IMG/VR virus record: IMGVR_UViG_2852501635_000002
Coordinates: 9,493-73,492 of that record
Origin: a virus
Taxonomy: Duplodnaviria > Caudoviricetes
Strand: one strand, 5' to 3'
Length of the DNA: 64,000 nucleotides
The translations under genes were made by a program, and so were the position numbers. Below, in pieces: positions 40,984-62,722 of the stretch. The stretch's first letter is position 1; each line of letters opens with the position of its first letter. The notes beneath the pieces were generated by a model. It was not told the DNA's origin, did no database searches, and saw nothing but the letters and a program-made list of their open reading frames with translations.

Positions 40984-42195
40984 ATGAAGCTAACAGCCAG
41001 ACAAGTAGAGACTTCCAAGCCAAAAGAGAAAGCTTATAAACTTTCTGACGGAGGGGGCATGTATTTAGAAGTTGCTCCGAATGGTTCTAAGTATTGGCGT
41101 ATGAAATATAGATATGCTGGTAAAGAGAAAAGGCTGGCTTTAGGTGTATACCCATCAATATCACTCGCACAAGCTAGGGCGAAGAGAGAAGAAGCCAAGC
41201 GCATATTAGCGTTAGGTGATGATCCATCTTTAGTGAAGAAAGCAGAAAAGAGAGAGAAAGAATCTCAAGTAAATAATAGCTTTGAAAAAATTACGCTTGA
41301 ATGGCATGACTATAAAAAGCCGAATTGGTCAAAAGGTTATGCGGATGATTTACTAGAAGCCTTCCAGAAAGATATCTTTCCTTATATTGGTAAAGTTAGC
41401 ATTACAGAAATTAAACCGTTAGATATGTTAGAAGTGCTTCGGAAGTTAGAAAAACGCGGTGTGTTGGATAAGCTTAAAAAGATAAGGCAGGCATGTAACC
41501 AAGTATTCCGCTATGCAATTGTGACAGGACGGGCTGAGTATAATCCCGCATCAGAATTAGCCGGCGCACTGTCTACTCCAAAAGCTAAGCATTTTCCTCA
41601 CTTAAATGTGAATGAGTTACCTGAGTTTTTACAGGCACTATCTGTATGTAGTGGAAGTAAGATCACTCAGATTGCGACAAAGCTATTAATGATAACAGGC
41701 GTTCGTACTATTGAGCTTAGAGCTGCTGAATGGTCAGAAATTGATTTTGATAAAGCTATTTGGGAAATTCCAAAAGAACGTATGAAAATGCGTCGCCCTC
41801 ACATGGTGCCATTATCTACACAGGCCTTAGAATTATTCAAAGAAATACAAACCATAACAGGAAAGTTTAAGTATATCTTTCATGGTAGGAATGATGCTTC
41901 TAAACCAATGAGTGAAGCGGCCATAAATCAGGTTATCAAGCGTATTGGTTATGATGGTAGAGCCACAGGTCACGGATTCAGACATACAATGAGCACCATC
42001 CTGCACGAACAAGGCTATAACACTGCATGGATTGAGACTCAACTTGCACACGTTGATAAAAACTCTATTCGTGGAACGTATAACCATGCTCAGTATATTG
42101 ATGGCCGTAGAGAAATGCTTCAATGGTACGCTGATTATATGGATACTTTAGAGAGCGGGGATAATGTTGTCCACGGTAACTTTAAACGTGCTTAA
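40984..42195 (+). CDS. int: P4-family tyrosine integrase
   Basis: LSDGGGMYL, GVRTIELR, HGFRH, QLAH, YNHAQY. Confidence 0.96.
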   Translation: MKLTARQVETSKPKEKAYKLSDGGGMYLEVAPNGSKYWRMKYRYAGKEKRLALGVYPSISLAQARAKREEAKRILALGDDPSLVKKAEKREKESQVNNSFEKITLEWHDYKKPNWSKGYADDLLEAFQKDIFPYIGKVSITEIKPLDMLEVLRKLEKRGVLDKLKKIRQACNQVFRYAIVTGRAEYNPASELAGALSTPKAKHFPHLNVNELPEFLQALSVCSGSKITQIATKLLMITGVRTIELRAAEWSEIDFDKAIWEIPKERMKMRRPHMVPLSTQALELFKEIQTITGKFKYIFHGRNDASKPMSEAAINQVIKRIGYDGRATGHGFRHTMSTILHEQGYNTAWIETQLAHVDKNSIRGTYNHAQYIDGRREMLQWYADYMDTLESGDNVVHGNFKRA

Positions 42196-42411
42196 CCCAC
42201 CAGCAGACACATACAGAACCAGACAATAAAAGGTCTGGTTTTTTTGTACCGAGAAAGGGCATTAATAATATTTAATCATTAAATGTATGATGTGGCTGAA
42301 TTCTAACTAAGATGAGAAAAATCTTAATATACGCTTAAGAGTACACCCTAGTAGACGACAATAGACTATGCGAAGATGTGATAAATAAAACTGTTCGTTT
42401 CTTAAGCTTGA

Positions 42412-42427
42412 CTGTTCATTATTACAG
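42412..42427. promoter_or_regulatory. LexA (SOS) box between TTGACT and TATAAT hexamers
   Basis: CTGTTCATTATTACAG = CTG-N10-CAG. Confidence 0.6.
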
Positions 42428-42469
42428 TATAATATACCTAGTAGTACCGCAGTAGATCATTGTGGACTT

Positions 42470-43218
42470 CGCTCTTTAACACCTCTGCGCTGAAAAACGC
42501 GATATGTTCTTTAACAACGATGATGGCGAGCTGTGTGTTAGTCATCAGAACGGTGGCGCTGATAAAGCGACCAATGCTCTTTTACAAATTCGGGTATGCC
42601 CAGAGTAAATTCTCAGGGACAATCTGTCACGGTGGCGCTCTTGAAGCGCTGATATATGAATTTTTATCTGATTAGTAGCAGAACCAGCTTGTAACAAATA
42701 AGGAACGCTCAGAGCAATTTCTCCGAGCATATAAGTTTTATTGATAATCTTTATATTAGATTATCAGCTCTTTAAAATATGGATTCCCCCTTGGGTTGTC
42801 TTGAGGGGGCTAATGATAACCTCATTAGCATGTTGATGACTTCTCAACATAAATAATATTTGTAGCAAAATATGTACTGATAGCTACTTGTTCTTTAAAA
42901 ACTGACCTGCGCTCCTTGCAAATGGGAGCTTTTAGTAAACAACTTAATGATTTTGTTCTGTTTACTAAATATATGTAGTTCAGGTCGTTAATGGCAATCA
43001 GCTAAATTGAATAATATAATTGTAACTATTCAAATTAGTAAATTGTTCTTTGAAATTTAAGTCTCCGCCTTTGTGGAGTGTAGTTCTGTTCTTTAAAACT
43101 TATTTCGCTCCTGCATCAGGAGCAAAGCTCATATCTATATCAATGGAAATATTATCTTATCAAATATTCATTAATTATAGTTATGTTCTTTTCAAGGCTC
43201 TATGCACAGGCAGTGAGC
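42470..43218 (+). repeat. Array of boxA-like motifs each followed by hairpins (nut-like array)
   Basis: boxA-like 12-mers at 42470, 42505, 42575, 42766, 42889, 43044, 43087, 43184, plus a degenerate one at 42686. Confidence 0.7.
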
Positions 43219-43375
43219 ACAAATCAGTTTATTATTGAGATTGTTTTATTTTAAACAACAAGCCCCCACTCAAAAAACACCTTAAAATATAAACCATAAT
43301 ATGCGTTATTAACCTTATACATTTATGTATAGGGTTTTTTCGCATGTCTTTTCATATCACATTAAGGAAAATACT

Positions 43376-43573
43376 ATGAATAATCTGATTAGGCTTTCAG
43401 AGGTTTTGCGACGCACAGGTTACAGCAAAGCTTGGATTTATAGACTAATTAAAGAAAATGACTTTCCTAAACAAGTCAAAATAGGAGCTCGTTCTATTGC
43501 TTTTGTTGAATCAGAAGTAGATGAATGGATTGCTAATAAGATTGCTGAATCACGTTCTGGTGAGGTGGCATAA
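43376..43573 (+). CDS. alpA: AlpA-family regulator/excisionase
   Basis: LIRLSEVLRRTGYSKAWIYRLI..FPK.VKIG.RSIAFVESEVDEWI. Confidence 0.93.
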   Translation: MNNLIRLSEVLRRTGYSKAWIYRLIKENDFPKQVKIGARSIAFVESEVDEWIANKIAESRSGEVA

Positions 43574-43968
43574 TGAAAAAGAAAAACCACCCATCACAGG
43601 TGGCTTCTCAGAATAACGTAGCGTCGTCTATTCTATCAAAGAACCCACCTAAAAAACACCGTGCCCGTTTATATATGTTAGGTACTGGCATTAATGGCTT
43701 TACCGAGAATGAAATATTAATTCATTGCCGTTTATCGTCAGGCCGTAATTACCCAAATGAATTAGAGCGTTTATTGAATATCGAACTAGAACGCATTGAT
43801 GAGCCTAATCCTGATGGTATCGGATCACATTATCGTTACCGCTTTAAAACGGCTCAAGATGTGCAGAAGGTTATTAACTTAATAAATAAACGTGCTGAAC
43901 AAGGTAATTACCAACCCATAGATAACGCACTCATAAATAATATTTTAAGCCTGTACCCGACAAAATAA
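43573..43968 (+). CDS. Hypothetical satellite protein
   Basis: Coupled to alpA. Confidence 0.7.
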   Translation: MKKKNHPSQVASQNNVASSILSKNPPKKHRARLYMLGTGINGFTENEILIHCRLSSGRNYPNELERLLNIELERIDEPNPDGIGSHYRYRFKTAQDVQKVINLINKRAEQGNYQPIDNALINNILSLYPTK

Positions 43969-43980
43969 CGGAATAAAAAA

Positions 43981-44814
43981 ATGAAACTAAAAAATAACAG
44001 CTTAAATGCTGGTGGATTCGCTCACCCTGAAAACCACTCTAGCGATATTAAGGAATTATCTTTTGCTGAAATGCTGCCAGTAATTCAGGGAAATATTAAC
44101 GGGCAGATTATTAATGCAGTAAGTGCCAAAGCATTACACGAAGCATTAAGTGTAGGTCGTGATTTTTCTACTTGGATTATTGGCCGTGTTAATGAATACG
44201 CTTTTGTGGAAGGAACGGATTATCAATCAGATGATGACTTTAATATTCGCTGCTTACTTAATGAACAATATTCCCCCGTTTTGGGGAATAATACAAAACG
44301 TGGTCGCCCTGAAAAGGATTACTTATTAACGCTAGGCATGGCTAAAGAATTGGCAATGGTTGAACGTACCGAAAAAGGGCGCTTAATCCGGCAATACTTT
44401 ATCAAGTGTGAGGAAGCTCTACACAAAGTCGCGCCAACAATCACTAAGCAGTTACGGCATCAACTTAAATCACGCCTCAAAGTGGCTAGTTACTTTAAGC
44501 CGATGTGTTCAGCGTTAGAGCTAGCACGTATGGAGCAAGGCAAAAGCACACTACCGCACCACTACACAACTGAGTCAAACATGCTTAACCGAATTGTGTT
44601 AGGTGGACTCACTGCCAAAGCATGGGCGAAGCAGAACGGCATTATTGGCAATCCCCGTGATGCTATGAGCGAAACCCAATTAGAGCACCTTTCATACCTT
44701 GAGCAGACGAATACAACGCTAATTGAATTAGGCATGGACTATCACGCACGCAAGGACAAGTTAATCAGTCTATCTCAAAAGTGGTTAGCGCAACGTGTAG
44801 AGGTGGCGCAATGA
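43981..44814 (+). CDS. AntA/AntB antirepressor-family protein
   Basis: VSAKALHEAL.VGRDFSTWI, DYLLTLGMAKELAMVERTEKG..IRQYFI. Confidence 0.9.
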   Translation: MKLKNNSLNAGGFAHPENHSSDIKELSFAEMLPVIQGNINGQIINAVSAKALHEALSVGRDFSTWIIGRVNEYAFVEGTDYQSDDDFNIRCLLNEQYSPVLGNNTKRGRPEKDYLLTLGMAKELAMVERTEKGRLIRQYFIKCEEALHKVAPTITKQLRHQLKSRLKVASYFKPMCSALELARMEQGKSTLPHHYTTESNMLNRIVLGGLTAKAWAKQNGIIGNPRDAMSETQLEHLSYLEQTNTTLIELGMDYHARKDKLISLSQKWLAQRVEVAQ

Positions 44815-45536
44815 TTACCCTATGTTCAATAAAGGATATTGCCTACCAAGTGAATAATTCTCTACTGGCAGGTAATAACGTAAGTTCAACTTACACCACG
44901 ACTAATACGGTAGCTTTAAACTATGGTATTACGGGCAGTCAATCAGCGAAAATTTACGCCAATCAATCAATCCTAACCACCGTTGGAGGATGGGATAACA
45001 GCGATAACCTAAAACGTGGAGAATTTACACCATTTATTAAAGGTGATTTTTCTCACCTTTCTAAAGTCGGGAAATCTCGCTATTTATCGAGTGAAATTGA
45101 GTTTTTACAGTCCATAAAAAAGGGCGGCCAATCGGCTACCCTTGGGAACGTCGATATTAAATACCGAGCAAGTGAGAACTATAAGAATAGTATTCATCTT
45201 GTTATCGGTAAAGATGACAACCTTGAGTTAATACAAAAATGTGCAATACATCACTTGCACTTATGGGTAATTGTTGGCTATAGTGATCAGGCACTAGCAA
45301 AATCTAGTGTCAGGATTGGCGTTCTGAATTTGTACAAGGCGACACATGACGCGCCTAGCGTCTTTTTTTGTGTCAATGCCTACGCACACCTATTAAATGC
45401 GGTATTATATCGCACCGAATCTATGGTGGCGGCAGCAGAGCAACCGAAAGGTTGGCTGGTTTCCTTGTACGCCAGTAACGCCAACTCTACTGTCGTCACC
45501 ACCCCGAAATTGGCGTTTCTGGTGGTGACTCCTTAG
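44811..45536 (+). CDS. Ash-family ORF overlapping c4/CI RNA, with composite N-terminus
   Basis: GYS..ALAKSSVRIGVL, APSVFF, SMVA..EQPKG motifs. Confidence 0.7.
   Translation: MITLCSIKDIAYQVNNSLLAGNNVSSTYTTTNTVALNYGITGSQSAKIYANQSILTTVGGWDNSDNLKRGEFTPFIKGDFSHLSKVGKSRYLSSEIEFLQSIKKGGQSATLGNVDIKYRASENYKNSIHLVIGKDDNLELIQKCAIHHLHLWVIVGYSDQALAKSSVRIGVLNLYKATHDAPSVFFCVNAYAHLLNAVLYRTESMVAAAEQPKGWLVSLYASNANSTVVTTPKLAFLVVTP
45424..45501 (+). ncRNA. c4 / P4 CI-type antisense RNA
   Basis: Closing stem TGGTGGCGGCAG/CTGTCGTCACCA; loops CCTTGTAC (45463) and AACGCCAA (45477) complementary to GTACAAGG (45332, 45541) and TTGGCGTT (45316, 45510). Confidence 0.85.
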
Positions 45537-45559
45537 TATTGTACAAGGAGATCATCGTT

Positions 45560-45751
45560 ATGATGGCAACCCCTACCCAAACTCAATTCAAATTTTTGTT
45601 TCTGAGTATTAAACGTTCAGATACAACTGCTAAGCCTTGCCGTATCACTATTACCGCACCGAATGAACACGATGCAAGACTGATGCTTGTACGTGATTAT
45701 ATCCTGTCATTCGCTGGTCGCTTACCTGTTAAGGAGGTGGCTCATGCGTAA
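45560..45751 (+). CDS. Icd-like host cell division inhibitor
   Basis: FKFLFL...APNEHDAR..L...YILSFAGRLPV. Confidence 0.85.
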   Translation: MMATPTQTQFKFLFLSIKRSDTTAKPCRITITAPNEHDARLMLVRDYILSFAGRLPVKEVAHA

Positions 45752-45917
45752 TCCTCAACCTAACGATTTCTACACGCATAAAAATAATAGCGAAACCGCC
45801 AAAGTTCTATCGGTTCAATTCAACCGTGTGACCTTTCAGCGAGACGGCTTTGATAGTCCTGTCATTGTTCCATTAAGCCAGTTCAGCAACGAATACACCT
45901 ATGCAGGGAGGGCTTAA
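45744..45917 (+). CDS. DUF4222-like small protein
   Basis: PQPNDFYTHKN...RVTFQRDGF. Confidence 0.65.
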   Translation: MRNPQPNDFYTHKNNSETAKVLSVQFNRVTFQRDGFDSPVIVPLSQFSNEYTYAGRA

Positions 45918-45919
45918 TT

Positions 45920-46177
45920 ATGGGGCGTTATCCAGAAAACTATAAGCGTATTCAAGCCGAAATTTCGAACATGTTAGGCAATGACCTCCTTTTATCTTCA
46001 GAAGAACGTAGCCGTGACCGATTACTTAGGGTTCGAAAAGGTATGGCTCATATTCTTAGTGAAGTATTTCCTCTAATTGATGATCCCAAAAAACAAGAAC
46101 TCTATTACTGGTTGGAAGCCATTAGCCGTATCAGTGGCGCAGAAGCCGTAGACGCTAAATCGAAGGGGGAAGCATGA
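45920..46177 (+). CDS. Hypothetical protein
   Basis: ORF in operon with RBS. Confidence 0.65.
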   Translation: MGRYPENYKRIQAEISNMLGNDLLLSSEERSRDRLLRVRKGMAHILSEVFPLIDDPKKQELYYWLEAISRISGAEAVDAKSKGEA

Positions 46178-46353
46178 GCAAACCTATTCCATTGGACATA
46201 GCTGCATACAAGGCGCAGCAAAATAATTCATTACTTGCCGTTATCTTAGAGTTAGCAAGTAAAGATTGTTCGCGGGAGTTAATCGACCTCGTTTCTATTG
46301 CGTATGACTTTAATGCGGAAATATGTGAATCCCTCGAGGAGGCGACCAAATGA
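46174..46353 (+). CDS. Hypothetical protein
   Basis: Hand translation MSKPIPLDIAAYKAQQNNSLL...; coupled both sides. Confidence 0.65.
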   Translation: MSKPIPLDIAAYKAQQNNSLLAVILELASKDCSRELIDLVSIAYDFNAEICESLEEATK

Positions 46354-46559
46354 AAACAATCAAATTAAATGTTGGTCACTTATCTACCTTGGAAGAAGTC
46401 GAACACATCAACGAAGAACTTCAAGCGTTGTTAATCCCGCTGTTAACAGCTGTAGAGAATGAAGCTGAGACGGATACGCATTTTATGCTGAGAGCAGTCA
46501 ACCGCTTAGTGTGTGCTCAAGGAAAAGAAATCACAAAGTTGGTGGAGGTGATGAAATGA
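46350..46559 (+). CDS. Hypothetical protein
   Basis: Coupled ORF. Confidence 0.65.
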   Translation: MKTIKLNVGHLSTLEEVEHINEELQALLIPLLTAVENEAETDTHFMLRAVNRLVCAQGKEITKLVEVMK

Positions 46560-47167
46560 GACAAGTCACTATCAATGCCACCAGCTTAAGTCCATTCATG
46601 TATCAAGGTAAGCGAGTTGTCACCTTTGCCATGATTGACGAGGTACACCAACGCCCAACAGGTGCGGCTAGAAAATCATTCAATGCTCACCGTCAATATT
46701 TTACTGAGGGTAAGGATTTTTACCGCCTAACTGGACAGGATTTAGAACTGTTTAAACTTTGCGCGTCCATAAAACGGACGCACAAATATTCACCCATTAG
46801 TGATAAAGCCCGAGAAGTAACACTGATTACTGAATCGGGATACTTGCTAACCGTGAAGCCATTTAATGATCCACTTTCTTGGCAGGTACAAAACCAGCTT
46901 ATCGATGCATATTTTCGACTGTCTGAATTCCCTGAATTACAGCACATCAACATACCCACACTGGCAGAACTTGAAGCCATGCCAATTGGTGAGGCTCAGA
47001 ACTTGATTAGCCGCTTAGAGGCTGATTCTTATCAAGGGCACGGTAGGCGTGGCAGCTATGCCATGAACCTACGTCGCAAAGAGAAGAAAGCACTTAAACC
47101 AATGGTAATCGCCATTGAGCAAGCCTCGCAGCTACACATTCAGGATATGGGAGATTATCGCTCATGA
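46556..47167 (+). CDS. ORF6N-domain protein
   Basis: YQGKRVVTFAMIDEVHQRP.G.A, LITESGYLLTVKPFND.LSWQVQ. Confidence 0.88.
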   Translation: MRQVTINATSLSPFMYQGKRVVTFAMIDEVHQRPTGAARKSFNAHRQYFTEGKDFYRLTGQDLELFKLCASIKRTHKYSPISDKAREVTLITESGYLLTVKPFNDPLSWQVQNQLIDAYFRLSEFPELQHINIPTLAELEAMPIGEAQNLISRLEADSYQGHGRRGSYAMNLRRKEKKALKPMVIAIEQASQLHIQDMGDYRS

Positions 47168-47337
47168 GAACGTTTCTAATTGCAGGTTATGGCACAACAC
47201 TAAAAGGCCTAACACTAGGCATTAACAAGCAAGTGATATCTGCCAGCCTAAAAGATGCTCAGTCACAAGTGGTGCGAGAGGCGCAACGTGACGGTTTAAT
47301 TGATATCCGAATCAACTATGCGCGTGAGGTGAAGTAA
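47164..47337 (+). CDS. Hypothetical protein
   Basis: Hand-read coupled ORF MRTFLIAGYG... Confidence 0.55.
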   Translation: MRTFLIAGYGTTLKGLTLGINKQVISASLKDAQSQVVREAQRDGLIDIRINYAREVK

Positions 47338-47531
47338 TGACGCAAGAACAGAAACGTGAAATAGAGCAATTACTAGAACCGCACCAGTTAAAAGTATTAA
47401 TGCTAATCACCTTACTTTCTACGTGGTTGGAAGCAGAGGAATGCGATGAAACCAGAAACATGATCTGGGCTGTATTGACTGTTGTTTATTCAATTAGGGA
47501 TGAAATGAACGAAGCAGTAGAGGGTAAGTAA
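47337..47531 (+). CDS. Hypothetical protein
   Basis: Coupled ORF. Confidence 0.6.
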   Translation: MTQEQKREIEQLLEPHQLKVLMLITLLSTWLEAEECDETRNMIWAVLTVVYSIRDEMNEAVEGK

Positions 47532-48127
47532 TGAATATTTCTAATATTAACGCATTCGAACACAGTGAACAGGGTGTGATCCTCATTACTGAAGCAGCCA
47601 ACCAAGAGGCTATCAGCTATACCGAAGCATTAGAGGTATTAAACGATGGTAGCTTTGATGGTGATCTGATTTTTGGCTTTGAATTGGTTTTAGCTATCTG
47701 CAAGGGAGAGTGTGACGGCTTTTTTAATCCAACTAATCAGCAGCGTGTGATCTTGTGGCGTTGGATTGTAGCCGCTTCGTTTGTCGCAGAGCAAGCAGAC
47801 AATAACGGGACGCATCAAGTTGACAACGGCAGAGGTAAAACCATTACCGCCGCTATTTATCGCAACAAACATGCAACGTTAACCGTCTATGCCGCAAGCG
47901 AACGTATGTTACTAGCTAATCACATTGAGGGCGCTGCTTATGAGCACTATGGGGCAGAGAATGGCGCAATTATGGCAGTAAAGATATATAGGGATTTTAT
48001 CAATCTTGAGCCTAAACGCGGTTGCCGACTATCAGAACGAGGGCGTGAGGGGTTATCTGTTCTTCATGATGATCTAATTAGGGCGATAGAAGATGGTGAA
48101 TTTAGCGACACCGTAACCATTCATTAA
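47531..48127 (+). CDS. Hypothetical satellite protein
   Basis: 198-aa coupled ORF. Confidence 0.7.
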   Translation: MNISNINAFEHSEQGVILITEAANQEAISYTEALEVLNDGSFDGDLIFGFELVLAICKGECDGFFNPTNQQRVILWRWIVAASFVAEQADNNGTHQVDNGRGKTITAAIYRNKHATLTVYAASERMLLANHIEGAAYEHYGAENGAIMAVKIYRDFINLEPKRGCRLSERGREGLSVLHDDLIRAIEDGEFSDTVTIH

Positions 48128-48141
48128 AAGGACGCAATGAC

Positions 48142-48486
48142 ATGATAACGAAGAATTTTAAAGTTAATTCACTAGCGAATAGCTACGCAGCTGCTATTTA
48201 CCACGATATTACCACACGTAATGGCGGTGATTGGTTTTCGATGAAGGTAGGCAACAAAACGATTGAAGTTGCCATTATTGACGGTGTGAAAGGTATTCGA
48301 ATGCTCGTTGATAGCTATTTGCTGAAAGCCTTAAAAGGGCAATATCCCACATGGGAGGCAGTTGCTATTGGCTTGATAGAGCAATGTGTCATTAATGGAT
48401 ATGTCACAGGTTATGGTCGAGAGGTGTGGCAAAGCATGATTAATGATATGGGCGACTCTTTCGCTGATAAGGGGGCGTTTCAATGA
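48142..48486 (+). CDS. Hypothetical protein
   Basis: ORF coupled to primase. Confidence 0.65.
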   Translation: MITKNFKVNSLANSYAAAIYHDITTRNGGDWFSMKVGNKTIEVAIIDGVKGIRMLVDSYLLKALKGQYPTWEAVAIGLIEQCVINGYVTGYGREVWQSMINDMGDSFADKGAFQ

Positions 48487-51203
48487 AGCCGATTGATGTT
48501 ATCCGTGAGGTGAAGCTGAAAGCTAACGGACAATGGCAAGCTATATTATCTCACCTTGGGGCAGAAGTGCCCCTAAACACGCACACGGCTTGCCCTCATT
48601 GTGGTGGTAAAGACCGGTTTAGATTTGATAACAAGGACGGTAATGGCACGTTTATTTGTAATCAGTGCGGTTCTGGTGATGGATTAGATCTCGTTCAGCG
48701 TGTGTTAGGTGTCAGTGTAACCGAAGCTGCAAAAGAAGTTGCTAACATAATTGGTATTGATACCCGTTCAGCGTGTCCACCAGCCTACCGTCGTTCTGAG
48801 ATAAAAGCACAACAAGACGAACTGAAAGCGCAGCAAGCCGAAAAACAAGCTAACGAGAAGAGAGAGAAGCATAAACGCTTTATTGAACGGTATAACCGCA
48901 CTATTGCCAATGTTCAACGTGGGAGATCTGACTATCTCAAGGCTAAGGGGCTGCATGGTTTTGAAATGGATTTATTACAGGACGGTTCTCTTATCATTCC
49001 ATTATTGGACGCTGGTGGCGTTATTACTGGCGCACAAACTATTAAGCCTAATGGTGATAAGCGTTTGCTGTCAGATAGCGCAAAGTCAGGCAGTTATTAC
49101 CCCATCAATGAGCCTGTAAACGTCTCTACGGTGATTATCGCTGAAGGATTAGCAACCGCCCTAACGTGTCACTTAATCCAACCAGAAGCGCACACAGTTG
49201 CGGCAATTGATGCGGGAAACCTCATTCATGTAGCTAAGGTAATGCGAGTTAAGTATCCAGAGAGCAAGATTATTATTGCTGGGGATAACGATATTAAGCC
49301 AGGCCAAGACAATACAGGGAAATTAGCGGCAGAAAAGGCAGCTAAGGTGGTTAATGGTGTCGCTGTTTTACCCCCTACTGATGATAAAGCCGATTGGGAT
49401 GACTACCGCCTATCACACGGTATTGATGCGGCAAGACAGGCATTTAATGAAATATTAGAGCAGCAAGGAGGCAAGGTGATGATAGAAACTAGGGTAAGCA
49501 ATGAAGTCGTTAAACCTGACCCAATGAAGCCACGCATTGAATCACGTAAAGAGGGGGTATTTCTTGTTACACCGAAAGCCGACAAGGAAACAGGGGAAAT
49601 CATCAATCATGAGCAGTGGTTATCAAATGCTATCAAGCGGATCACTAAAGGTGTTAATGACCTCAATCAAGAGTATTTGATTATTGAGTGGGGGAATAAC
49701 AATGTTCAGGCAATACCGACAGGCGATATAGGAGAGCGTGAAGGATGGCGCACATTAAAAAACGCGGGGTTATTTGTCACTACCAAATCAGGATTAAGAC
49801 AGTCGTTTTCTGATTGGCTGTTACGTCAACCATTCAAAGAGGACTGGAGTATTACGAATAAATCAGGTTGGCACAAAGGCGCATATATCATGCCCGATGG
49901 TTCAATTATCGGCACACCTGAACAACCGATATTTTTTAACGGACAAAGCGCAGCAGCAACTGCCTACAAAGCAAGTGGAACGGTGGAAAGCTGGCGAAAT
50001 GATGTAGCGCGATTGGCTAACGGTAATAGTTTTATGATGTTTACGATTGGCGCCGCATTATCTGCACCGATGACGAGTCTTACGGGGGCTGACAGCTTTG
50101 GTATTCACATTTACGCTCAATCGACAGCAGGGAAAAGTACCACGGCAGATATGGCCGTGAGTTTATACGGTGATCCTGATTTACAGCGCTTAACATGGTA
50201 TGGCACTGAATACGGTATGACTAACGAAGCTGTAGCGCACAATGACGGACTTTTGTATTTGGATGAAGTCGGACAAGGGGCAGACCCTAAACACGTCTAC
50301 AAATCGGCTTACACGCTGTTTAATGGTAAAGGTAAGATCCAAGGTGCGAAGGAGGGCGGCAATAGGCAAGTTCAAAGCTGGCGGACAGTGGCCATTAGTA
50401 CAGGAGAAAAGGATATTGAGACCTTTTTATTAAGTTCGGGTGTGAAAGTCAATGCAGGGCAGCTAGTACGATTACTCAACATCCCTATTGAACGCGCCAC
50501 TGAACTACATGAATGTGAAACAGGGAAAGCCCACGCAGATTTAATTAAGATAAATTGCCGTTCTAGCTATGGGGCCGCAGGACGTTATTGGATTGAATAT
50601 CTATCAAATCATAAAGATGAAGCTAAAGAAGCCTATAGAACTGCACAACAACGCTGGAGTAAATTAATTCCGAGCAGTTACGGAGAACAAGTTCATCGAG
50701 CCAGTGATCGATTCGCTACTATAGAAGCGGCTTTGATAATGGGCCGTGTGATTACTGGCTGGAATGAACAAGATTGTAAGGATGCTGTTCAAGCCGCGTT
50801 TAACGCTTGGATTGCTGAGTTCGGCACAGGTAATAAAGAGATTGAACAGATTAAAGATCAGACGATCGCTTTTTTAAGTACGTATGGAATGAGTCGATTT
50901 GCTCCATTGCCTTATGATGAGCAATCTTTACCTATCAGAGAACTTGCAGGGTACAGAGTTAAATCAAACACGCAGGATGAAGCGCCCATATTATTTTATA
51001 CATTGCCAACAGTATTTAAGAACGAGATAGCCAAAACGTTCAATACGGACACTTTCGCTGATGCCCTGCATAAACTAGGTATTTTAAAAAAGCCTTCCAA
51101 TGGGAAAGGATATCAAGGCAGAACACCGCGTTTGAAACATTTAGGCAACATTCAGCAACGCGCCTATATTTTGATGCTTGTTCCTGATGAAGAGGAGGAG
51201 TGA
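48483..51203 (+). CDS. Primase-helicase (P4 alpha zinc finger, TOPRIM, DUF927)
   Basis: CPHCGGKDRFRFD..CNQCG, AEGLATA, AGDND, QSTAGKST, LDEVGQ. Confidence 0.93.
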   Translation: MKPIDVIREVKLKANGQWQAILSHLGAEVPLNTHTACPHCGGKDRFRFDNKDGNGTFICNQCGSGDGLDLVQRVLGVSVTEAAKEVANIIGIDTRSACPPAYRRSEIKAQQDELKAQQAEKQANEKREKHKRFIERYNRTIANVQRGRSDYLKAKGLHGFEMDLLQDGSLIIPLLDAGGVITGAQTIKPNGDKRLLSDSAKSGSYYPINEPVNVSTVIIAEGLATALTCHLIQPEAHTVAAIDAGNLIHVAKVMRVKYPESKIIIAGDNDIKPGQDNTGKLAAEKAAKVVNGVAVLPPTDDKADWDDYRLSHGIDAARQAFNEILEQQGGKVMIETRVSNEVVKPDPMKPRIESRKEGVFLVTPKADKETGEIINHEQWLSNAIKRITKGVNDLNQEYLIIEWGNNNVQAIPTGDIGEREGWRTLKNAGLFVTTKSGLRQSFSDWLLRQPFKEDWSITNKSGWHKGAYIMPDGSIIGTPEQPIFFNGQSAAATAYKASGTVESWRNDVARLANGNSFMMFTIGAALSAPMTSLTGADSFGIHIYAQSTAGKSTTADMAVSLYGDPDLQRLTWYGTEYGMTNEAVAHNDGLLYLDEVGQGADPKHVYKSAYTLFNGKGKIQGAKEGGNRQVQSWRTVAISTGEKDIETFLLSSGVKVNAGQLVRLLNIPIERATELHECETGKAHADLIKINCRSSYGAAGRYWIEYLSNHKDEAKEAYRTAQQRWSKLIPSSYGEQVHRASDRFATIEAALIMGRVITGWNEQDCKDAVQAAFNAWIAEFGTGNKEIEQIKDQTIAFLSTYGMSRFAPLPYDEQSLPIRELAGYRVKSNTQDEAPILFYTLPTVFKNEIAKTFNTDTFADALHKLGILKKPSNGKGYQGRTPRLKHLGNIQQRAYILMLVPDEEEE

Positions 51204-53045: not shown

Positions 53046-53386
53046 TGGAAAAATTACAACGGTTAGCAAGCACTATAGCCCAGATTTATGTTGATAATTT
53101 AAAAGCTGAAACAGGAGAAACATTAGTAACTTATAACGGTATCACAGGTAAAGTTACCCCTGAATTACTGGCCGCTGGATTGTTTGATAATGCGGTATTT
53201 GCGGTTAAAGCGGATGGAGAAGAGATTGACGTTGAAGGTAAGGCGTATGATTTACTATCCCCGTTAATTAACTTATCAACAAAGCCTTACTCCCTAACGG
53301 GACAGGCATATAAATTGATTAATTTTCTCAATGTGCAGGCACTAAAAGCAGGAAGCACTTTATCAACCTTATCAGTTGTACATTAA
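53045..53386 (+). CDS. Hypothetical protein directly upstream of satellite TMP
   Basis: TAATG-coupled ORF; possible chaperone by position only. Confidence 0.65.
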   Translation: MEKLQRLASTIAQIYVDNLKAETGETLVTYNGITGKVTPELLAAGLFDNAVFAVKADGEEIDVEGKAYDLLSPLINLSTKPYSLTGQAYKLINFLNVQALKAGSTLSTLSVVH

Positions 53387-53402
53387 TCACAGGGAGAAAA
53401 TT

Positions 53403-56400
53403 ATGTATCATGGCGAAGGTTACACAGTATATGTAGATGCCGATACGGCCGGCCTTCTTGAGGCTAACCGTGAAATCGAAAAAGCAAGAAGAAAAATAAA
53501 TGATTTAGGCAACGAAGCAAACACCACAAGCAAATCATTTACTCAATTCAATAAATCAGCAATCGCGGTTTCCAGTGCGTTAAAAATGCCTGAAATAAAC
53601 CGCTTATCACGTCAAATGAGTGAATTGGCGGGGCAAATTGGCGCTGCTTCAATGGCAACAGATAAGGCAACGACTGTTAACGCGCGTTTTACAGGTGTGA
53701 TTAGCAATGTGTCTGGGCTACTAGGGGCGGGATATGTTTCTAATATTGGTAGCGCTACTGTTTCGCTCTTGCAACATACTCAAGGGGCAATTAATGCCAC
53801 ACAAGCCGAGGTTTTACATACTCGCGCTATTCAAATGAAGGCTCAGGCATTGCAAGCTGCTGCCTCCCAAGAAGTGATTAACGCCAAAAATCTTAAAGCA
53901 TCAACACAAGCAGAGCTAAAAGCAGCTCAGGCAGCGTTAGAACACGTTTATTCATTAGAAGGCTCTAATGATATCAAGCAGCGTAATTTAGAGTCACTTA
54001 GGGCACGACAGGCAGCAGTGCTCAAGGATGCTGAAATAACTTATCAAATGACTGCGAGTGAAGAAAATTTGCAGCGAGTGACTAAAGCCAGTAATGCGCT
54101 ACATGCTACGGAAACTAAAATAAAAACGCATTTAGCTACAACCGGAAAAGAAATTGCGCTTGTTGAGGCTAGAGTCGCTAAAGCAAAAGAAGCAGAAACA
54201 CTAGCAACTCAAAAATTAAATGCGGCATTAGCATTAGAGCAAAAAGCGAAAGCCACACTAGCCACTACAACAGACGCGGTGACCGTAGCTAATGGTCGCG
54301 CAGCCCAAGCGGCTAGAAGTCAATCCATTGCTATGCAAGGATTGCGAGGTGTTGTGGGGTTATTAGGTGGCCCAACGGGTGTTTTTATGTTGGCTACTGC
54401 TGGCGTGTATGCGCTATATAACGCGATGAATGATGACACCGCAACGAAAGAGTTTAATGACAGAGTAGATCAGTGGATTGATAAAATTGACGAACTGTCA
54501 GCCAAACAGGCTCGCGCTGTGGCTAACCGCTTAGGCGAGAAGATAGCGGAAACAACCACACAACTAGAGGGACAGAAAAAAAGTCTTTCCAGTGTTAATT
54601 CAGATCTAAAAAGATATGAAAATAGACTTGCTGATATTAATAAAGAGATTCAAAGACAAAAAGAACAAGGTTTTGAAGTAGGTAAGTCTTACGTTCAGGA
54701 TGATATAGTAAAGGAAATCGAAAAACTCACCAAGAAACAGCAGCAGTATGAGCTGATTATTTCAGAAGGTGAGCAGAATATTCGTCGCTGGACGGTATCA
54801 CAAGGTAAAGCCGCTAATATTGCAAAAGAGAGAGCAAAACAAACAGACGAACTCAGCAGAGCGGAATTAATTTATCAACGCCAAGCTAAAGGGATAGTTG
54901 ATGCTAACCAACAATTAGCTAGATCACTAGAGCTAGGCAGTGACGCAGCCGTTAAGAAAGAACAAGCCATCAAAGAGTTAGAAAAGGCTTTAATTGCTGA
55001 TGGTTTTGTTAAAGACTCCGAGTTATTTAAACAAAAAATACAAGAGTTAACGGATGAGCTTGATAAGAAGGCAAGTTTAAACCTTGCTAACTCTCTTGCT
55101 GAGATAGAGCAACGAACACAAGCCCTCACTATTGGCATGAAAGACGGTAAGCCTGCACTGGATGAATACAATGCCTCGTTACTGCTTATGCAAATGGGGA
55201 TAAAAAAAGGTTCGGCTACCTACAATACCGAACTCCCGAAAGCGATAGAGGCAATACGCAATTTACGTGAAGCTCAAGAAGCCGCACTAAATAGCAAATC
55301 AAATGCTAACAAGTCGTTGAAAGCGATTAATAAGGCAAATGATGCCATTAAAAAACAACAGCAACAGACTGAGACGTTAAGAAAAGAATTTGAATTATTG
55401 AGTTCTGGCGCAGCTAACGTAAATAGAGAGATGGCTATTTTTAACGCTGTTCAAAGTCTGGGTGCTGATGCGACAGACAAGCAAAAGAAAGCTATTGCTA
55501 AAGAAGTCGCCGAAGTTTTTGACCTCAAACAAAAAGTCGATGACTTTATTAAGTCGCAAGAAATTACTCCAGAGTTAAAACTTGCAAGAGCATTTAGACA
55601 AGAATCTGAAGAGCTTAAACGCATGTTTGATAATGATTTCATTGATGAAGAAACGTTTAAGGCGTTAGGCAATAAAGCAATGAAGGCATTTGATGCTGGA
55701 ATGGCTGAAATAAAAATAAACGCGGTTATTGACCCAATAACTGAAGCCAAAGGGCAATACGACCCGATACAAGCACTGGCTAACGAACACGCTAAGAAAC
55801 TTGAGATGATCCGCCAATTCGAAACAGAAAAAGGCGCTATTACTCAGCGTGGCTTAGAGTTAATGAATGCCGCTAATACTCAATATGAGCAAGACCGGTT
55901 AAATGCTCAATGGGAGATATGGCGCAATCAAAGCCAAGCCAATCAATTCTTAGCTGATGGGTTGGACGCATTAGGACAGCGCTCTACTAACGTACTCACA
56001 GGGCTATTAACTCAAACACAATCCATTAACGATGCTTTCCGTAATGTCGCCTTAACCATCGTAGACCAAGCCGTTGGCGCTCTGGTCCAAATGGGTATGC
56101 AACAAGTTAAGAATATGATTATGGGTGAAAGTATGGCGACAGCCGCTCAAGCATCTGCATTGGCTCAGGCTGCGGCAGCACAAGCGGCATGGGCACCAGC
56201 GGCATTAAGCGCATCAATAGCCACATTAGGCGCAGCAGTAGCAACGGGAACATCATCATATACGGCGGCTATGGCAGCTAGTAAAACGATGGGGTTGGTT
56301 GCTGGTGCTCGTAAAAATGGTGGACCCGTAAATGCTGGCTCTATGTATCGAGTGGGTGAAGGTGGTAAGCCTGAGATATTCAAAGCATCTAACGGTAGTC

Positions 56401-56633
56401 AGTACATGATACCGGGTGATAATGGTCGAGTTATTAGCAATCGACAAATGGGTAAAGGTGGTAATGGTGTCAGCATGGGTGATATGAACTTTACATTCCA
56501 AGTTCAAGCACCTAATGGCATTACTCAAAAGGAGGCGCAACAAATACAGCAAATGGTGAGAGGTACGGTTTATGACGTACTTGGTAACGAAATGCGTAGC
56601 GGTGGTGCTTTGGAAAAAGTAAGAAGTTGGTAA
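53403..56633 (+). CDS. Satellite-encoded tape measure protein
   Basis: Ala-rich coiled coil, LLGGPTG, C-terminal blocks nearly identical to prophage TMP. Confidence 0.88.
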   Translation: MYHGEGYTVYVDADTAGLLEANREIEKARRKINDLGNEANTTSKSFTQFNKSAIAVSSALKMPEINRLSRQMSELAGQIGAASMATDKATTVNARFTGVISNVSGLLGAGYVSNIGSATVSLLQHTQGAINATQAEVLHTRAIQMKAQALQAAASQEVINAKNLKASTQAELKAAQAALEHVYSLEGSNDIKQRNLESLRARQAAVLKDAEITYQMTASEENLQRVTKASNALHATETKIKTHLATTGKEIALVEARVAKAKEAETLATQKLNAALALEQKAKATLATTTDAVTVANGRAAQAARSQSIAMQGLRGVVGLLGGPTGVFMLATAGVYALYNAMNDDTATKEFNDRVDQWIDKIDELSAKQARAVANRLGEKIAETTTQLEGQKKSLSSVNSDLKRYENRLADINKEIQRQKEQGFEVGKSYVQDDIVKEIEKLTKKQQQYELIISEGEQNIRRWTVSQGKAANIAKERAKQTDELSRAELIYQRQAKGIVDANQQLARSLELGSDAAVKKEQAIKELEKALIADGFVKDSELFKQKIQELTDELDKKASLNLANSLAEIEQRTQALTIGMKDGKPALDEYNASLLLMQMGIKKGSATYNTELPKAIEAIRNLREAQEAALNSKSNANKSLKAINKANDAIKKQQQQTETLRKEFELLSSGAANVNREMAIFNAVQSLGADATDKQKKAIAKEVAEVFDLKQKVDDFIKSQEITPELKLARAFRQESEELKRMFDNDFIDEETFKALGNKAMKAFDAGMAEIKINAVIDPITEAKGQYDPIQALANEHAKKLEMIRQFETEKGAITQRGLELMNAANTQYEQDRLNAQWEIWRNQSQANQFLADGLDALGQRSTNVLTGLLTQTQSINDAFRNVALTIVDQAVGALVQMGMQQVKNMIMGESMATAAQASALAQAAAAQAAWAPAALSASIATLGAAVATGTSSYTAAMAASKTMGLVAGARKNGGPVNAGSMYRVGEGGKPEIFKASNGSQYMIPGDNGRVISNRQMGKGGNGVSMGDMNFTFQVQAPNGITQKEAQQIQQMVRGTVYDVLGNEMRSGGALEKVRSW

Positions 56634-56699
56634 TTAAAAGCGTGGATAAAAACCATAATAGGGCAGATTTCTGCCCTTTATAGTATTGAAGGGTACATA

Positions 56700-57068
56700 A
56701 TGATAAAGATAAAAGTATCTAAAAGGAAAGGTCGCAATCAATCATTTCTACAATATTGCCAGCATGTAGATCAACGAGTATCACGGGCTATGCAACGGTT
56801 TCTTTTCGATGCTGGAGCACAATCCGCAATTTATACGCCTATCGATACATCAACATTGATTAATAGTCAGTTTAGGGATGTTACTGTTAATGGTACAAAA
56901 ATAACGGGACGTATTGGTTACTCCGCCAGCTATGCCGTTTATGTGCATGATCCGAAAGTTAAGCAGAAATTTAAACGACCAACAGCTAAAAAAGAGTTCT
57001 TGAAAAAAGCGGTCGAGGAAACGCTACCTAATTTAACTAAGTATATTCATGAAGAATTGAAGAGTTAG
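56700..57068 (+). CDS. HK97 gp10-like neck/tail-completion protein (homolog of 23558-23929)
   Basis: YTPIDTSTLINSQFR..TGRIGYSA.YAVYVHDP.VKQKF.R.TAKKEFLK shared with prophage gene. Confidence 0.88.
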   Translation: MIKIKVSKRKGRNQSFLQYCQHVDQRVSRAMQRFLFDAGAQSAIYTPIDTSTLINSQFRDVTVNGTKITGRIGYSASYAVYVHDPKVKQKFKRPTAKKEFLKKAVEETLPNLTKYIHEELKS

Positions 57069-57075: not shown

Positions 57076-57095
57076 ACTTTCGTGAACAGTACGCG
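57076..57095 (+). promoter_or_regulatory. Putative pac-site mimic
   Basis: 20/20 identity to terS 16005-16024. Confidence 0.65.
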
Positions 57096-57500: not shown

Positions 57501-57533
57501 TTTATCTACTATCTGATAATTTTCCATGCTGCT

Positions 57534-59482: not shown

Positions 59483-59594
59483 TAATATAATTCTTTTAGT
59501 TCTTAACGGACAAAAATATAGTTTAAATTGTCCGTTATTATAGATAGCAAAATTCGGTGATAACAAATTTTATACGTTAAAATCAATAGTTGCT

Positions 59595-60023
59595 TTAGTC
59601 CTGCAAATAATTCAATTTATTTACTATATTCTTGTGACGCCTCCATGCAGAATAGATATCTTTATCCCACGCTTTACCTGCCTTAGTTTGATAGCCTGCC
59701 TCATTAATCCGTTTAGCAATAATGCGCCCATTGGCTACACCCTCAGACAGTACAGAATTAACCACAGAAATGACAGCAGACTCATTATAGGTATAAGGTG
59801 GGATATCTGCCTTGCCAGCAATTAAAGATGCGAAAGACGATTCTAGGCGTTCCACCAGCGACAGTATGCGAGCGTCAGGATTACTGTCTGGGCGGTTTAG
59901 CTTCTCCTTGATAGCAGAGACTATCCATGCTGTTTTATCGCTACCAGAGTTCGATGCAGCATCATTAAACAGGGTTTGTAGTTCAGCAGGGAGACGAAAG
60001 GCAATAAGATTAGATTTACTTAT
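59595..60023 (-). CDS. RHH-like protein with recombinase-type DNA-binding tail; apparent start codon is ATA
   Basis: Open frame from ATA 60023: SKSNLIAFRLPAELQ...IAKRINEAGYQTKAGKAW. Confidence 0.55.
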   Translation of the reverse strand: MSKSNLIAFRLPAELQTLFNDAASNSGSDKTAWIVSAIKEKLNRPDSNPDARILSLVERLESSFASLIAGKADIPPYTYNESAVISVVNSVLSEGVANGRIIAKRINEAGYQTKAGKAWDKDIYSAWRRHKNIVNKLNYLQD

Positions 60024-60833
60024 GATAATAGTCCGTTATTAACTCAGTGAGCGCTTATTATATCAGCGTATAACACTGTTATACAGATTAGAAAATATAT
60101 CATTGCTAGTGGATTTAATGAATAAGTCCATAACTTAAAGTTAGAGTAACCTACTGTAAAACAAGCAAAGCGTATTCTTGCGCCTTGTAACGGATTGAAT
60201 ACATAGCAAAGCTCAAAAATGAGTGCTGTACTGTGGTGATTATCGCCATAGTCGGAAAGGGTAACAGTTGAAATGCTACCCTTGGTATCAAAACCACAAA
60301 TTAGTGATTTTAGCTAAAGTAGCTAAATATTAGCCAATACAGCTAACCACATAAACATAGTGGTACTATGATGATCCGTTGACTTTCAAACGTGAGGTAT
60401 CCACTAAGGTATCCACCGAAAAGGCTATATTTTACTGGATACTTTACCCACTAAATGTTGACAATTGTTAACATCAGAACCAGACAAAACCTGACATCAT
60501 TTACTTATTTTAGGTACGCAATAAATACGTATTTAATTCTCGCAATTCACTATAATTAAATAAAATCATGGTATTACATAAAGGTATGCAGAATAGTGCG
60601 CATTGAAATGATATTATTCGCATCGGTAACTATTTGATTATCCCGAGGCCGTCACTTTGGGGCGTACTGAAATAGCGTATTTCAATCTGCTAACGTGGTT
60701 GCCATTTTGATGGTTGCCACTTTGGTTGCCAGCAAAACGGCATATTTTACGCTAGTGGATTGATAACCTTTGATTGTTCCAATTCAGCACAATCAAGGTA
60801 TGGCGGAAATAACCACTCCTTTGAGGTATAGCC

Positions 60834-61022
60834 ATGTTACAACGAGAAACAATAGAAGCCGTTATGATGGAGTTAGCCCACCAGCAAGGGCATTCACTCA
60901 ATGGGCGTGATCGATTAGCGATTAGAACAGGTGTAGCACAGACAATGCAGGCTAAAGAACGTCACAGACGAAGAATGACAGCACCTACCTACCAATGGAC
61001 GAAGCCAGCACCAAAAAGATAA
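60834..61022 (+). CDS. Small hypothetical protein inside the site array
   Basis: RBS GAGGT, 62 aa. Confidence 0.6.
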   Translation: MLQRETIEAVMMELAHQQGHSLNGRDRLAIRTGVAQTMQAKERHRRRMTAPTYQWTKPAPKR

Positions 61023-61547
61023 TAGGTCGCCTTGAAATTAAGGGGACGTGAGGCTCTGAAATCGGAGGCTCGTCACTGGCTGGCAATATTCCAATAATGG
61101 CTACGAGGTAAAAGTAACCACAATGCAAATAAGCACTCTGGATAAATATCAATAAGTTATCTATGCTGAGAGATAAGATTACAACAAAGAGCGACGGCAA
61201 GATTACGGCAAGGTATTAACAATCAGGTTTCAGTCGGTCAATTTGACCGTTAGCAATAAAAACAATGTGTTGCCAACTCTTACCATTGGTCACTGAAACG
61301 ATGACCAATGAGCGTTAATCTGGTTTTGTTACAGAATTAAGTATTATCAATCAGTTGTATTTTGATTCCGTCGATTTACCGGAATTAAGTATAATCAACA
61401 GGTTATATCTACATACGGGATAATCCCGTATCATCATGGATAAATTAACGTTTAGATCACCCCTAGAAATTGGAATTATTACCTATACAACCTGAATCCT
61501 ACCAGTGTTTTATTTTAACCAATAGCTTATATTGTGATGGTATCAAG

Positions 61548-61835
61548 ATGAATAAACCAAAAATGAGAAAAGCAAAATCAATCAGGATCACCACATCAGG
61601 AACGGTAATCAAAGCACCTGAGCGAGTTAAAACAGCCACAGGTAAAGTTATGGCCACAATGACTATTCAGGCTGAGAGTGACAAGCGTAGCCCGTACCCA
61701 TTAAAGATAGTGGCATTCGATATTAACGCGCTGGAGCTAATGACCTGCCAGAAAGGAAACAAAGTAACTGCTACAGGTCGCTATGAATGGTTTAATGGTT
61801 ATCAGCTAACAGGGGCGCAGATAGTTGCTGGTTAG
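61548..61835 (+). CDS. OB-fold ssDNA-binding-like protein
   Basis: SGTVIKAPE, IVAF..AL, KGNKVTATGR. Confidence 0.6.
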   Translation: MNKPKMRKAKSIRITTSGTVIKAPERVKTATGKVMATMTIQAESDKRSPYPLKIVAFDINALELMTCQKGNKVTATGRYEWFNGYQLTGAQIVAG

Positions 61836-62146
61836 TAAAACTTAGTATCAATAGTTACATTAGGCTACTGGCCTACTTATACGCTTGACGTTAATGTTAT
61901 ATAAATTAATTTCTATAAGTCCGAATTGAGCATGGTTAAATGTACGCTAAAGTTAGTTGTATCAAAACTTACATGATGAATGAGATAAAAATATCCAGCA
62001 ACTATAGGTAACTATATAAGATGTTTTTGTTGGTCTAATGGCATATTTTCTCTGTATTTATTCGCTTCTGGCATTTTAGCCTTATAGGTTAGATTCAATG
62101 TGGGTCGATAGACTTGCTTGGATAACAACCTAAGAGAAAGCTTAAA

Positions 62147-62332
62147 ATGAATGATACAGATTTAATACTAGAAACTGATGTTTACAAATGGTTAGGACTG
62201 AAGCGTACGGCATTATGGCGACTAAAAAAGAAGCATGAATTTCCTCTCCCTGTTTTATACCGACCAGCAAAATATCGTAAATCATTAATTCAAAAGTGGC
62301 TTGATGATGGCGGGGTGAATAGAAAAAAATGA
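62147..62332 (+). CDS. AlpA/excisionase-like HTH protein
   Basis: VYKWLGLKRTALWRLKK..EFPLP...KW. Confidence 0.75.
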   Translation: MNDTDLILETDVYKWLGLKRTALWRLKKKHEFPLPVLYRPAKYRKSLIQKWLDDGGVNRKK

Positions 62333-62423
62333 ACACAGATTGAATCATACTCTCAGAATTTATAATTTAGTTGAGCTACCCTGAAAAATTCGAGGTAGTT
62401 CTCACTAATCAAAGAGGATGGTT

Positions 62424-62722
62424 ATGGAAGATGATTCACTTTTCATGGTAAAGGAATATGCAGCACTGCTTAAGCTTCTGAGTCGACTGTTTATAGAAAC
62501 CCAGCTAAGTATCATATGTTCCGTGTTGGCAGGTCATGGCGCGCCAGTAAAGAAAGCTTGAAACGATTTGAACAAGCTCAATTTGATAACAATCGCGATT
62601 ACCCAGCTGTCTTAACCCATAAAAGACAAAAAAAGGCTGATTATAAGAATAAATATGAGATTAGGATGCAAAGTGATGTGGCAAAAGAATTAGATAGGCT
62701 GTTATTTAAAGATACTAAATAA
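62424..62722 (+). pseudogene. Excisionase-like HTH gene with 1-nt frameshift near 62472
   Basis: MEDDSLFMVKEYAALLK joins ASESTVYRNPAKYHMFRVGRSWR in another frame. Confidence 0.6.

Follow-up and report, generated by a model that had tools for sequence, protein, structure and literature searches.

Phage pac sites can lie inside or beside terS, the gene of the small terminase subunit, as in gene 3 of P22, the hexamer repeats of P1 pacA and the pacL/pacR boxes of SPP1, and packaging from them is directional. Here, we analyze a stretch of viral DNA (60040-61547 of a 64-kb window, which is the right 64 kb of the 73.5-kb IMG/VR provirus record IMGVR_UViG_2852501635_000002; all coordinates are those of the window) that is probably part of a non-coding array of terminase-recognition, or pac-type, modules in a satellite of the phage-inducible chromosomal island (PICI) type, which sits in a Providencia/Proteus-type genome and is without a terS of its own. 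As in P22, P1 and SPP1, the elements in question are short, repeated or asymmetric TerS elements in or beside terS; they differ from those sites in being an R1-15-R2-12-R3-inverted R4 block in terS genes of the family phrog_1206, and paired 8-9-mers in terS genes of the Terminase_2 type, for which we found no description as pac sites. The pac sequence of P22 is quoted in PMC5261728.

That satellites copy a cos or pac signal of their helper is established. The EcCICFT073 satellite is described with two cos sites and Gram-positive PICIs as carriers of phage pac or cos (PMC6092414), and the Vibrio PICI-like element (PLE) carries a 14-bp pac mimic that is required for its transduction (PMC11417361). 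The likeness to EcCICFT073 and SaPIbov5, with their cos sites, and to PLE is that of a satellite without the matching terminase specificity, which copies the packaging signal of a helper and is packaged by the helper terminase (PMC6092414, PMC11417361). These satellites are, however, described with one helper type and one or two copies of one signal, whereas the satellite in the window shows several putative recognition classes from two or three TerS families in a row, trimmed to the terS repeat block, in a set that varies among relatives. Our literature search, which did not cover supplements, returned no paper on multi-class pac arrays in one satellite or on the octamer block of phrog_1206 terS.

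Two further descriptions come close in gene content. EcCIMP1, a PICI of E. coli with Kapi1 as helper, has no capsid or terminase genes, and its packaging mechanism is stated as unknown (PMC11773190); like the satellite in the window, it has int, AlpA, a primase, helper-shared genes downstream of the primase and a second alpA(-like) gene near the far end, but the available text of that paper mentions no pac-like repeats, and the likeness is one of gene content as described. Tommasini, Mageeney and Williams (2023) distinguish four zones in Gram-negative PICIs, for integration (int, AlpA), Bro genes, replication and late genes, the last holding genes captured from the helper and, near its end, a shared packaging site (PMC10111431). 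The zone order, including late-gene capture, is the same here; the difference is that those authors assume packaging by cos, from a single shared stretch of 258 bp, in contrast to the several pac-type classes described below.

Repeats in two non-coding spacers

The array occupies two non-coding spacers, one (60040-60833) between a minus-strand ribbon-helix-helix (RHH)-like gene and a 62-aa ORF (open reading frame; phrog_7271), the other (61023-61547) between this ORF and a weak SSB-like ORF. All the repeats listed in the initial annotation can be found, shifted by at most one or two bases: AGGTATCCAC at 60395 and 60407 (spacing 12), which puts the first base of each GGTATCCAC copy at 60396 and 60408, respectively; TGGTTGCCA at 60696, 60711 and 60723 (spacing 15, then 12); and ACGGCAAG at 61194 and 61205 (spacing 11). 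Neither GGTATCCAC nor TGGTTGCCA occurs again on either strand of the whole 64-kb window. The reading frames quoted with the repeats (KREVSTKVSTEKAI, NQTKPDI, DGKITAR) are correct translations, and no long ORF spans them.

To see how often such repeats arise by chance, we counted exact direct repeats of at least 8 nt with 9-16 nt spacing, roughly a helical turn, in 60040-61547 and in 300 dinucleotide-preserving shuffles. The stretch holds five, against a shuffle mean of 0.18 (maximum 2; none of the 300 reaches 5), and it ranks first among 125 same-length tiles of the window, the median tile having none. The repeats are thus real and far beyond chance. In related Providencia and Proteus elements, moreover, they keep a constant distance to the adjacent small ORF. 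An Rfam scan of 56000-64000 gave a single sub-threshold match, so that no known RNA explains this region, and a scan for promoters and terminators found fewer promoter-like sites than in shuffles. A BLAST search of 59500-62400 against GenBank phages returned only three short matches.

The octamer block of phrog_1206-type terS genes

The source gene of the GGTATCCAC pair is a family of ~200 aa starting MAKRPDWEAIE, which corresponds to phrog_1206, "terminase small subunit" (E=3.5e-82). It matches 54 GenBank phage records, many annotated as terminase small subunit and directly upstream of terL, with Providencia phage PSTCR7lys, HK639, SEN34 and GF-2 among the members, and it has 569 relatives in viral contigs. 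Inside these genes, three direct copies of an octamer (R1-R3, start-to-start distances of 15 and 12 nt) are followed by an inverted copy (R4). We distinguished five octamer classes in 70 distinct terS sequences (GGTATCCA, GGTTGCCA, GGTTCGCA, GGTACGCA and GGTTTCCA), and the class switches jointly at all three direct copies. An inverted copy of the matching class stands at a fixed offset in 17 GGTATCCA, 8 GGTTGCCA, 2 GGTTCGCA and 1 GGTACGCA rows, where it encodes the unrelated residues ERIL, ERQL, EREL or ERVL. A joint change of class despite unrelated residues at the inverted copy argues for selection on the DNA and not on the protein. Moreover, the helix-turn-helix of TerS follows the class, THxAINKR going with ..CC octamers and xExAIRKR or SDxAIRKR with ..GC octamers, in a small and non-independent sample of 39 distinct N-termini. 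Concerted octamer change and helix-turn-helix tracking together point to a recognition site at the DNA level. The comparison thus indicates a DNA element conserved beyond the needs of the protein and, given the concerted change, we infer that these terS-internal repeats are the pac recognition sites of the phages that carry them.

The exact X-N7-X-N4-X architecture was found in 138 distinct contexts among all the loci collected, of which those fetched by pattern are a biased sample; 113 of the contexts are in terS in sense and none in antisense, 20 are satellite-family loci, all in the satellite gene direction, and 5 lie elsewhere. The GGTATCCAC pair has 97 matches in 94 viral-contig stretches, falling at codons LVSKREVSTKVSTEK within terS; 50 of the 97 are in terS in sense and none in antisense, 21 belong to satellite-family loci and 26 lie elsewhere. 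The GGTACGCA pair is in terS in sense in 99 of its 139 viral-contig matches.

Units in the window

As far as the comparison goes, each module is a copy of the repeat block carried inside terS by one phage class. Of the phrog_1206 classes, GGTATCCA and GGTTGCCA are intact and GGTACGCA is decayed in the window; the Terminase_2-type classes are a ACCTGACA pair and a ACGGCAAG pair. The units, the palindrome among them and an Sf6-type 20-mer are as follows.

60381..60447, + strand: GGTATCCA-class unit of the phrog_1206 type, with a degenerate R1 (60381-60388, 4/8), R2 (60396-60403), R3 (60408-60415) and an inverted copy (GGATAC, 60437-60442)
60455..60474, no strand: 20-nt palindrome ATGTTGACAATTGTTAACAT with a TTGACA box, amid the units
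60477..60498, + strand: Terminase_2-type unit, AACCAGACA-A-AACCTGACA-TC, spacing 10
60513-60532 and 60584-60604, + strand: two decayed GGTACGCA-class units, from alignment with relatives and the window sequence
60696..60731, + strand: GGTTGCCA-class unit of the phrog_1206 type, three perfect copies with 15/12 spacing
61194-61213 (within 61172..61213), + strand: Terminase_2 "NGKITAR" unit, ACGGCAAG-ATT-ACGGCAAGG
57076..57095, + strand: Sf6-type terS 20-mer, an exact 20/20 copy of the prophage terS stretch 16005-16024, outside the array coordinates

The initial annotation had taken six segments for terS-derived fragments of several TerS kinds, a view that held for four of them. The first, 60388-60429, matches the phrog_1206-type terS genes that start MAKRPDWEAIE, in sense, at 92-97% identity over 35-40 nt, at gene nt 174-224. 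When 56650-62150 was searched against 80 terS loci gathered by protein similarity alone, 12 of the 26 high-scoring segment pairs fell at 60387-60428, all on the + strand and inside terS nt 174-224. The likeness was also seen at the protein level, where tblastn placed TerS residues 57-86 at 60373-60462 (E=1.4e-5) and, apart from the gene of the resident prophage, found no other part of a terS in the window. As controls, two neighbouring repeat-rich segments were searched by BLAST and gave 0/6 and 0/24 records in terS.

The threefold TGGTTGCCA repeat, likewise read as terS-like, agrees in octamer and in 15/12 spacing with the GGTTGCCA class, which is carried by the terS of Providencia phage PSTCR7lys. 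Of the two decayed units, the one at 60584-60604 retains intact GTACGCA pairs in relatives, and the one at 60513-60532, lying outside the relatives' alignment, is called from the window sequence only. Prophages resident in two genomes, one of Providencia and one of Xenorhabdus, have the GGTACGCA class in their terS genes (KEEVRKQVRTE); in the latter genome (our genome G008), the satellite (locus L039) has a GTACGCA unit.

Two further segments match terS genes of the Terminase_2 type. The NQTKPDI segment (60477-60498) corresponds to the ENLTKPDI codons of Terminase_2-like terS genes, with one mismatch to the terS of Morganella phage IME1369_01 in the 21-nt repeat core and further terS matches in two Bordetella phages, Lactobacillus phig1e and Enterococcus EG-TP1. 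A permissive BLAST placed 6 of 26 records in terS, and the four such matches that we opened are on the sense strand, 118-124 nt into the gene. The DGKITAR segment, ACGGCAAG-ATT-ACGGCAAG, corresponds to the NGKITAR codons of Pfam Terminase_2 terS ORFs, and a cyanophage terS matches the 20-mer of this unit exactly (20/20 nt). A scan with a single protein for NGKITAR-type terS yielded seven loci, too few for an unbiased test of conservation at the codon level. The adjoining DKITTK segment (61172-61189) may at best be a decayed sister of the NGKITAR unit.

The MLTIVNI segment, that is the palindrome, had been proposed as a terS fragment too, and this we reject. Its 18-mer is found in 18 viral stretches, nine from relatives of the satellite and nine unrelated, and none of the nine unrelated matches is in terS. 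Six of these nine lie in an ORF that we take to be RegA-like, after T4 RegA. The palindrome is probably an operator or promoter element.

Other repeats in the spacers include GAGGCTC, present twice with 15-nt spacing at 61050-61071, and a related conserved GAGGCCGTCAC block upstream, at 60643-60660. BLAST did not map the GAGGCTC pair or the GAGGCCGTCAC block to terS genes; in the 80-locus set, they gave one 27-nt match, in antisense, upstream of a terS locus.

Arrays in related satellites and their orientation

Tandem arrays with up to six octamer classes recur in satellites of the same family in other Enterobacterales, whose proteins are 35-60% identical. In multi-class examples (our loci L204, L215, L242 and L247), each class has a 12-spaced pair, often with an inverted copy, and such arrays are also present in other, unrelated-looking elements (L177, L214, L216, L217, L185 and L195). 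The content of units differs even among close relatives: L033, L034 and L038 have an extra GGTTTCCA unit, whereas L040 and L043 have GGTACGCA units. The 57076 Sf6-type 20-mer is conserved in 8 of 21 close relatives. At L035:3600-3760 and L036:4440-4540, rows of four sister units, ACGG[CA/GG/TA/CG]AG-NTT-repeat, are followed by a GGTTTCCA unit; these ACGGnnAG rows look like graded specificity variants of the Terminase_2 NGKITAR site.

All modules are aligned with the satellite gene direction. The initial annotation had claimed a single orientation, and indeed every unit in the window (6/6) is on the + strand, as are 68 of 68 in the 21 close relatives, these calls coming from related sequences and not being independent events.

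The host element

The window holds two elements. The left one is a lambdoid-type prophage; the second begins at 40984, to its right, and its gene content identifies it as a Gram-negative PICI-type satellite, with int and AlpA, its own primase and no terminase or capsid set. Its layout conforms to the four zones of Gram-negative PICIs, including captured helper late genes. The annotated features are listed below.

1 to ~40300: lambdoid-type prophage (prophage 1), with Q antiterminator, lysis genes, Sf6-type terS, terL, portal and tail genes
15842-16282: Sf6-type terS of this co-resident prophage (PF20901, E=1.3e-43)
40984..51203, + strand: PICI-type satellite core, from Pfam and PHROG matches
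40984-42195, + strand: P4-type integrase (domains PF00589, PF22022 and PF13356)
43325-43573, + strand: AlpA (PF05930, E=7e-21)
within 40984..51203, + strand: "Bro-zone" genes AntA, Ash and ORF6N (Pfam/PHROG)
48483-51203, + strand: primase-helicase, 906 aa (Zn_Ribbon_Prim, Toprim_3, DUF927)
53376..57068, + strand: captured late genes resembling those of a helper (the next two entries)
53376-56633, + strand: tape-measure homologue (phrog_1107, E=2.7e-131)
56700-57068, + strand: neck/tail-completion protein (phrog_5, E=1.2e-11)
59595..60020, - strand: RHH-like gene divergent from the array, seen in translation, without Pfam or PHROG family
60834..61022, + strand: small conserved ORF, 62 aa (phrog_7271, function unknown), embedded between units

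Among the ORFs of 40 aa or more that were scanned in 40984-64000, none matched terS, terL, portal or capsid genes, and tblastn with 11 TerS queries against the window returned only the resident prophage gene and the 30-residue module at 60373-60462. The tape-measure gene of the satellite shares 75-79% nucleotide identity with that of prophage 1. The satellite also carries an Abi_2 abortive-infection gene.

A tRNA 3' fragment lies directly upstream of the satellite int, with a tRNA-like 3' end near 40794. It occurs once in the record, and an attachment-site search found no repeat of 12 nt or more connecting the left end of the satellite with 56600-64000. In the genomes of five relatives, each copy of the fragment is on its own contig (two contigs in G002), these contigs not being mapped to satellites. 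The stretch from the primase to 62499 is collinear with a 14.7-kb viral contig from a metagenome, which places the array within a conserved block. Attachment-site (att) homology to a helper late gene, of the helper-embedded PICI (HE-PICI) type, was considered as an explanation of the repeats and rejected, given the many different units far from the integrase.

Just 3' of the primase-helicase gene, 51236-51613 holds perfect 19-21-nt inverted repeats made of GTTGTCTCA units, and these iteron-like repeats are likely the replication origin of the satellite. The start codon of the RHH-like gene (60018-60020, minus strand) is ATA in the window and in L007, and ATG in the other 27 relatives listed; in the window, the gene thus possibly has a weak start or is inactivated. 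To the right of the array are a second AlpA-like gene (62147-62332) and a gene of the P4 "Beta protein" family (PF14350, 62888-64000), within which the record ends.

Helper-like sequences near the array

Several short sequences around the array resemble non-coding or origin sequences of phages. At 60307-60346, two iteron-like repeats of ~19 nt (TTAGCTAAAGTAGCTAA / TTAGCCAATACAGCTAA) are close to four iterons (L593:655-750) that Yersinia phage vB_YenM_06.16-1 has in its gene for "DNA replication protein O" (BLAST E=3), and a helper origin site may have been copied here. The 44 nt at 61117-61160 match prophage-1 11532-11575 at 95% in inverted orientation; this prophage stretch is part of the spacer that separates Q from the lysis genes, and Proteus phage vB_BPM-V3 has it in the corresponding spacer. 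The 75 nt at 57429-57503, which directly precede the Abi_2 gene, are a direct 96% copy of 11435-11509. By these alignments, the satellite shares pieces of a helper late-region spacer, flanking its cargo.

Furthermore, 61232-61432 shares ~89% identity with a Providencia phage PSTCR7lys spacer, which runs from the lysis genes to a gene of 260 aa that directly precedes terS; the window has a 260-aa ORF of its own, KilA-N (11699-12481). The 61232-61432 segment holds perfect palindromes (61235-61249 and 61415-61429) and a hairpin (61287-61310), which recurs ~800 nt upstream of terS in 12 of the 80 terS loci.

Discussion

A satellite without its own terS needs some way of being recognized by a helper terminase. 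We infer that the module copies are bound by helper TerS and used for packaging. In this model, once the satellite is induced and replicated, the TerS of the helper present would bind the matching module on satellite DNA and recruit TerL, and headful packaging would proceed rightwards. Several helper types could in this way mobilise one satellite, and the 57076 20-mer would serve the co-resident Sf6-type prophage.

A number of observations weigh against this explanation. Most matches of two octamer pairs in viral contigs lie outside terS (118 of 135, with 13 in terS in sense, for the GGTTGCCA pair; 110 of 119, with 9 in Terminase_2 terS in sense, for the ACGGCAAG pair), so that octamer pairs alone are not diagnostic and only spacing and context are; the bias of the pattern-fetched loci is a point on the same side. 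In the window, R1 of the GGTATCCA unit is poor and the GGTTGCCA unit shows no clear inverted copy, and the three GGTTTCCA terS rows have no inverted copy of the matching class at the fixed offset. BLAST against GenBank phages returned nothing for the GGTTGCCA segment and weak E-values (0.1-6) for both Terminase_2 units. We found no definition of a pac site for the phrog_1206 family in the literature, and the SEN34 paper states that the packaging sequences of this phage were not identified. A full phrog_1206-type terS was present in only 2 of 10 genomes with a related satellite, as counted with one query, a co-occurrence too thin to argue either way. Finally, the right end of the satellite was not found in the record, and the placement of the array inside the element therefore rests on synteny with relatives.

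Among other explanations, the modules could be TerS decoys that titrate or misdirect the helper terminase and depress helper packaging, instead of packaging the satellite. Copies of TerS sites in a satellite are what this reading expects as well, and interference with the packaging of the helper is common among PICIs and PLE (PMC6092414, PMC11417361). The need of a terS-less satellite for recognition by a helper terminase remains unmet by decoys, and the uniform orientation with the satellite genes fits directional packaging better than titration. We thus regard decoys as unlikely in place of packaging sites, the two roles not being exclusive and perhaps coexisting.

Less credible still is that the modules are neutral relics of terS genes, captured together with helper late genes and later deleted. 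Gram-negative PICIs do capture runs of helper late genes (PMC10111431), and the satellite holds tape-measure and neck genes. Moreover, the distant satellites L170, L175, L205, L229 and L234 retain ~50 nt of extra terS coding sequence past the repeats, which shows that the units derive from terS genes and were trimmed afterwards. Such an origin from terS suits relics. However, only the repeat block remains and no other part of terS is detectable; adjacent blocks represent several classes and two or three TerS families, all with one orientation; in alignments with relatives, the octamers stay perfect while the spacers diverge; and the arrays recur in satellites whose proteins are only 40-60% identical. 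For these reasons we give relics very little weight.

The poorest fit is with operators, promoter elements or iterons for the satellite's own proteins (RHH-like regulator, AlpA or primase), the terS likeness being incidental: the array does lie between divergent genes (RHH-like on the - strand, small ORF on the +) and contains the TTGACA-box palindrome, which has no terS match, as well as the iteron-like repeats at 60307-60346, but octamer, copy number, 15/12 spacing, strand and flanks match the terS site in several independent classes, and in distant relatives the small ORF is on the other side of the RHH gene, yet a unit is still ~380 nt from the RHH start, which makes this highly improbable.

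Returning to pac-type modules, we tentatively extend the idea, with somewhat more doubt than confidence, to Enterobacterales PICI-type satellites in general. These might carry an evolvable "key ring" of pac modules (for one TerS family, six octamer classes or more, and besides these several Terminase_2 and Sf6-type classes), possibly together with helper origin iterons and late-region spacers, that would allow replication and packaging by many unrelated helpers. Modules would be gained from terS by recombination and lost by decay, and phrog_1206 TerS with its R1-R4 block would form a switchable code that sets packaging specificity.

The helper range of a satellite decides how far its cargo travels, which here includes the Abi_2 gene and other candidate defence genes. 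If the explanation is correct, a multi-class array would account for the packaging of terminase-less satellites such as EcCIMP1, and the helper range of satellites would be predictable from sequence alone. The repeats also provide a candidate pac site and specificity code for the widespread phrog_1206 terS family, and the array would mark the start points and the direction of a possible lateral transduction of the DNA to its right.

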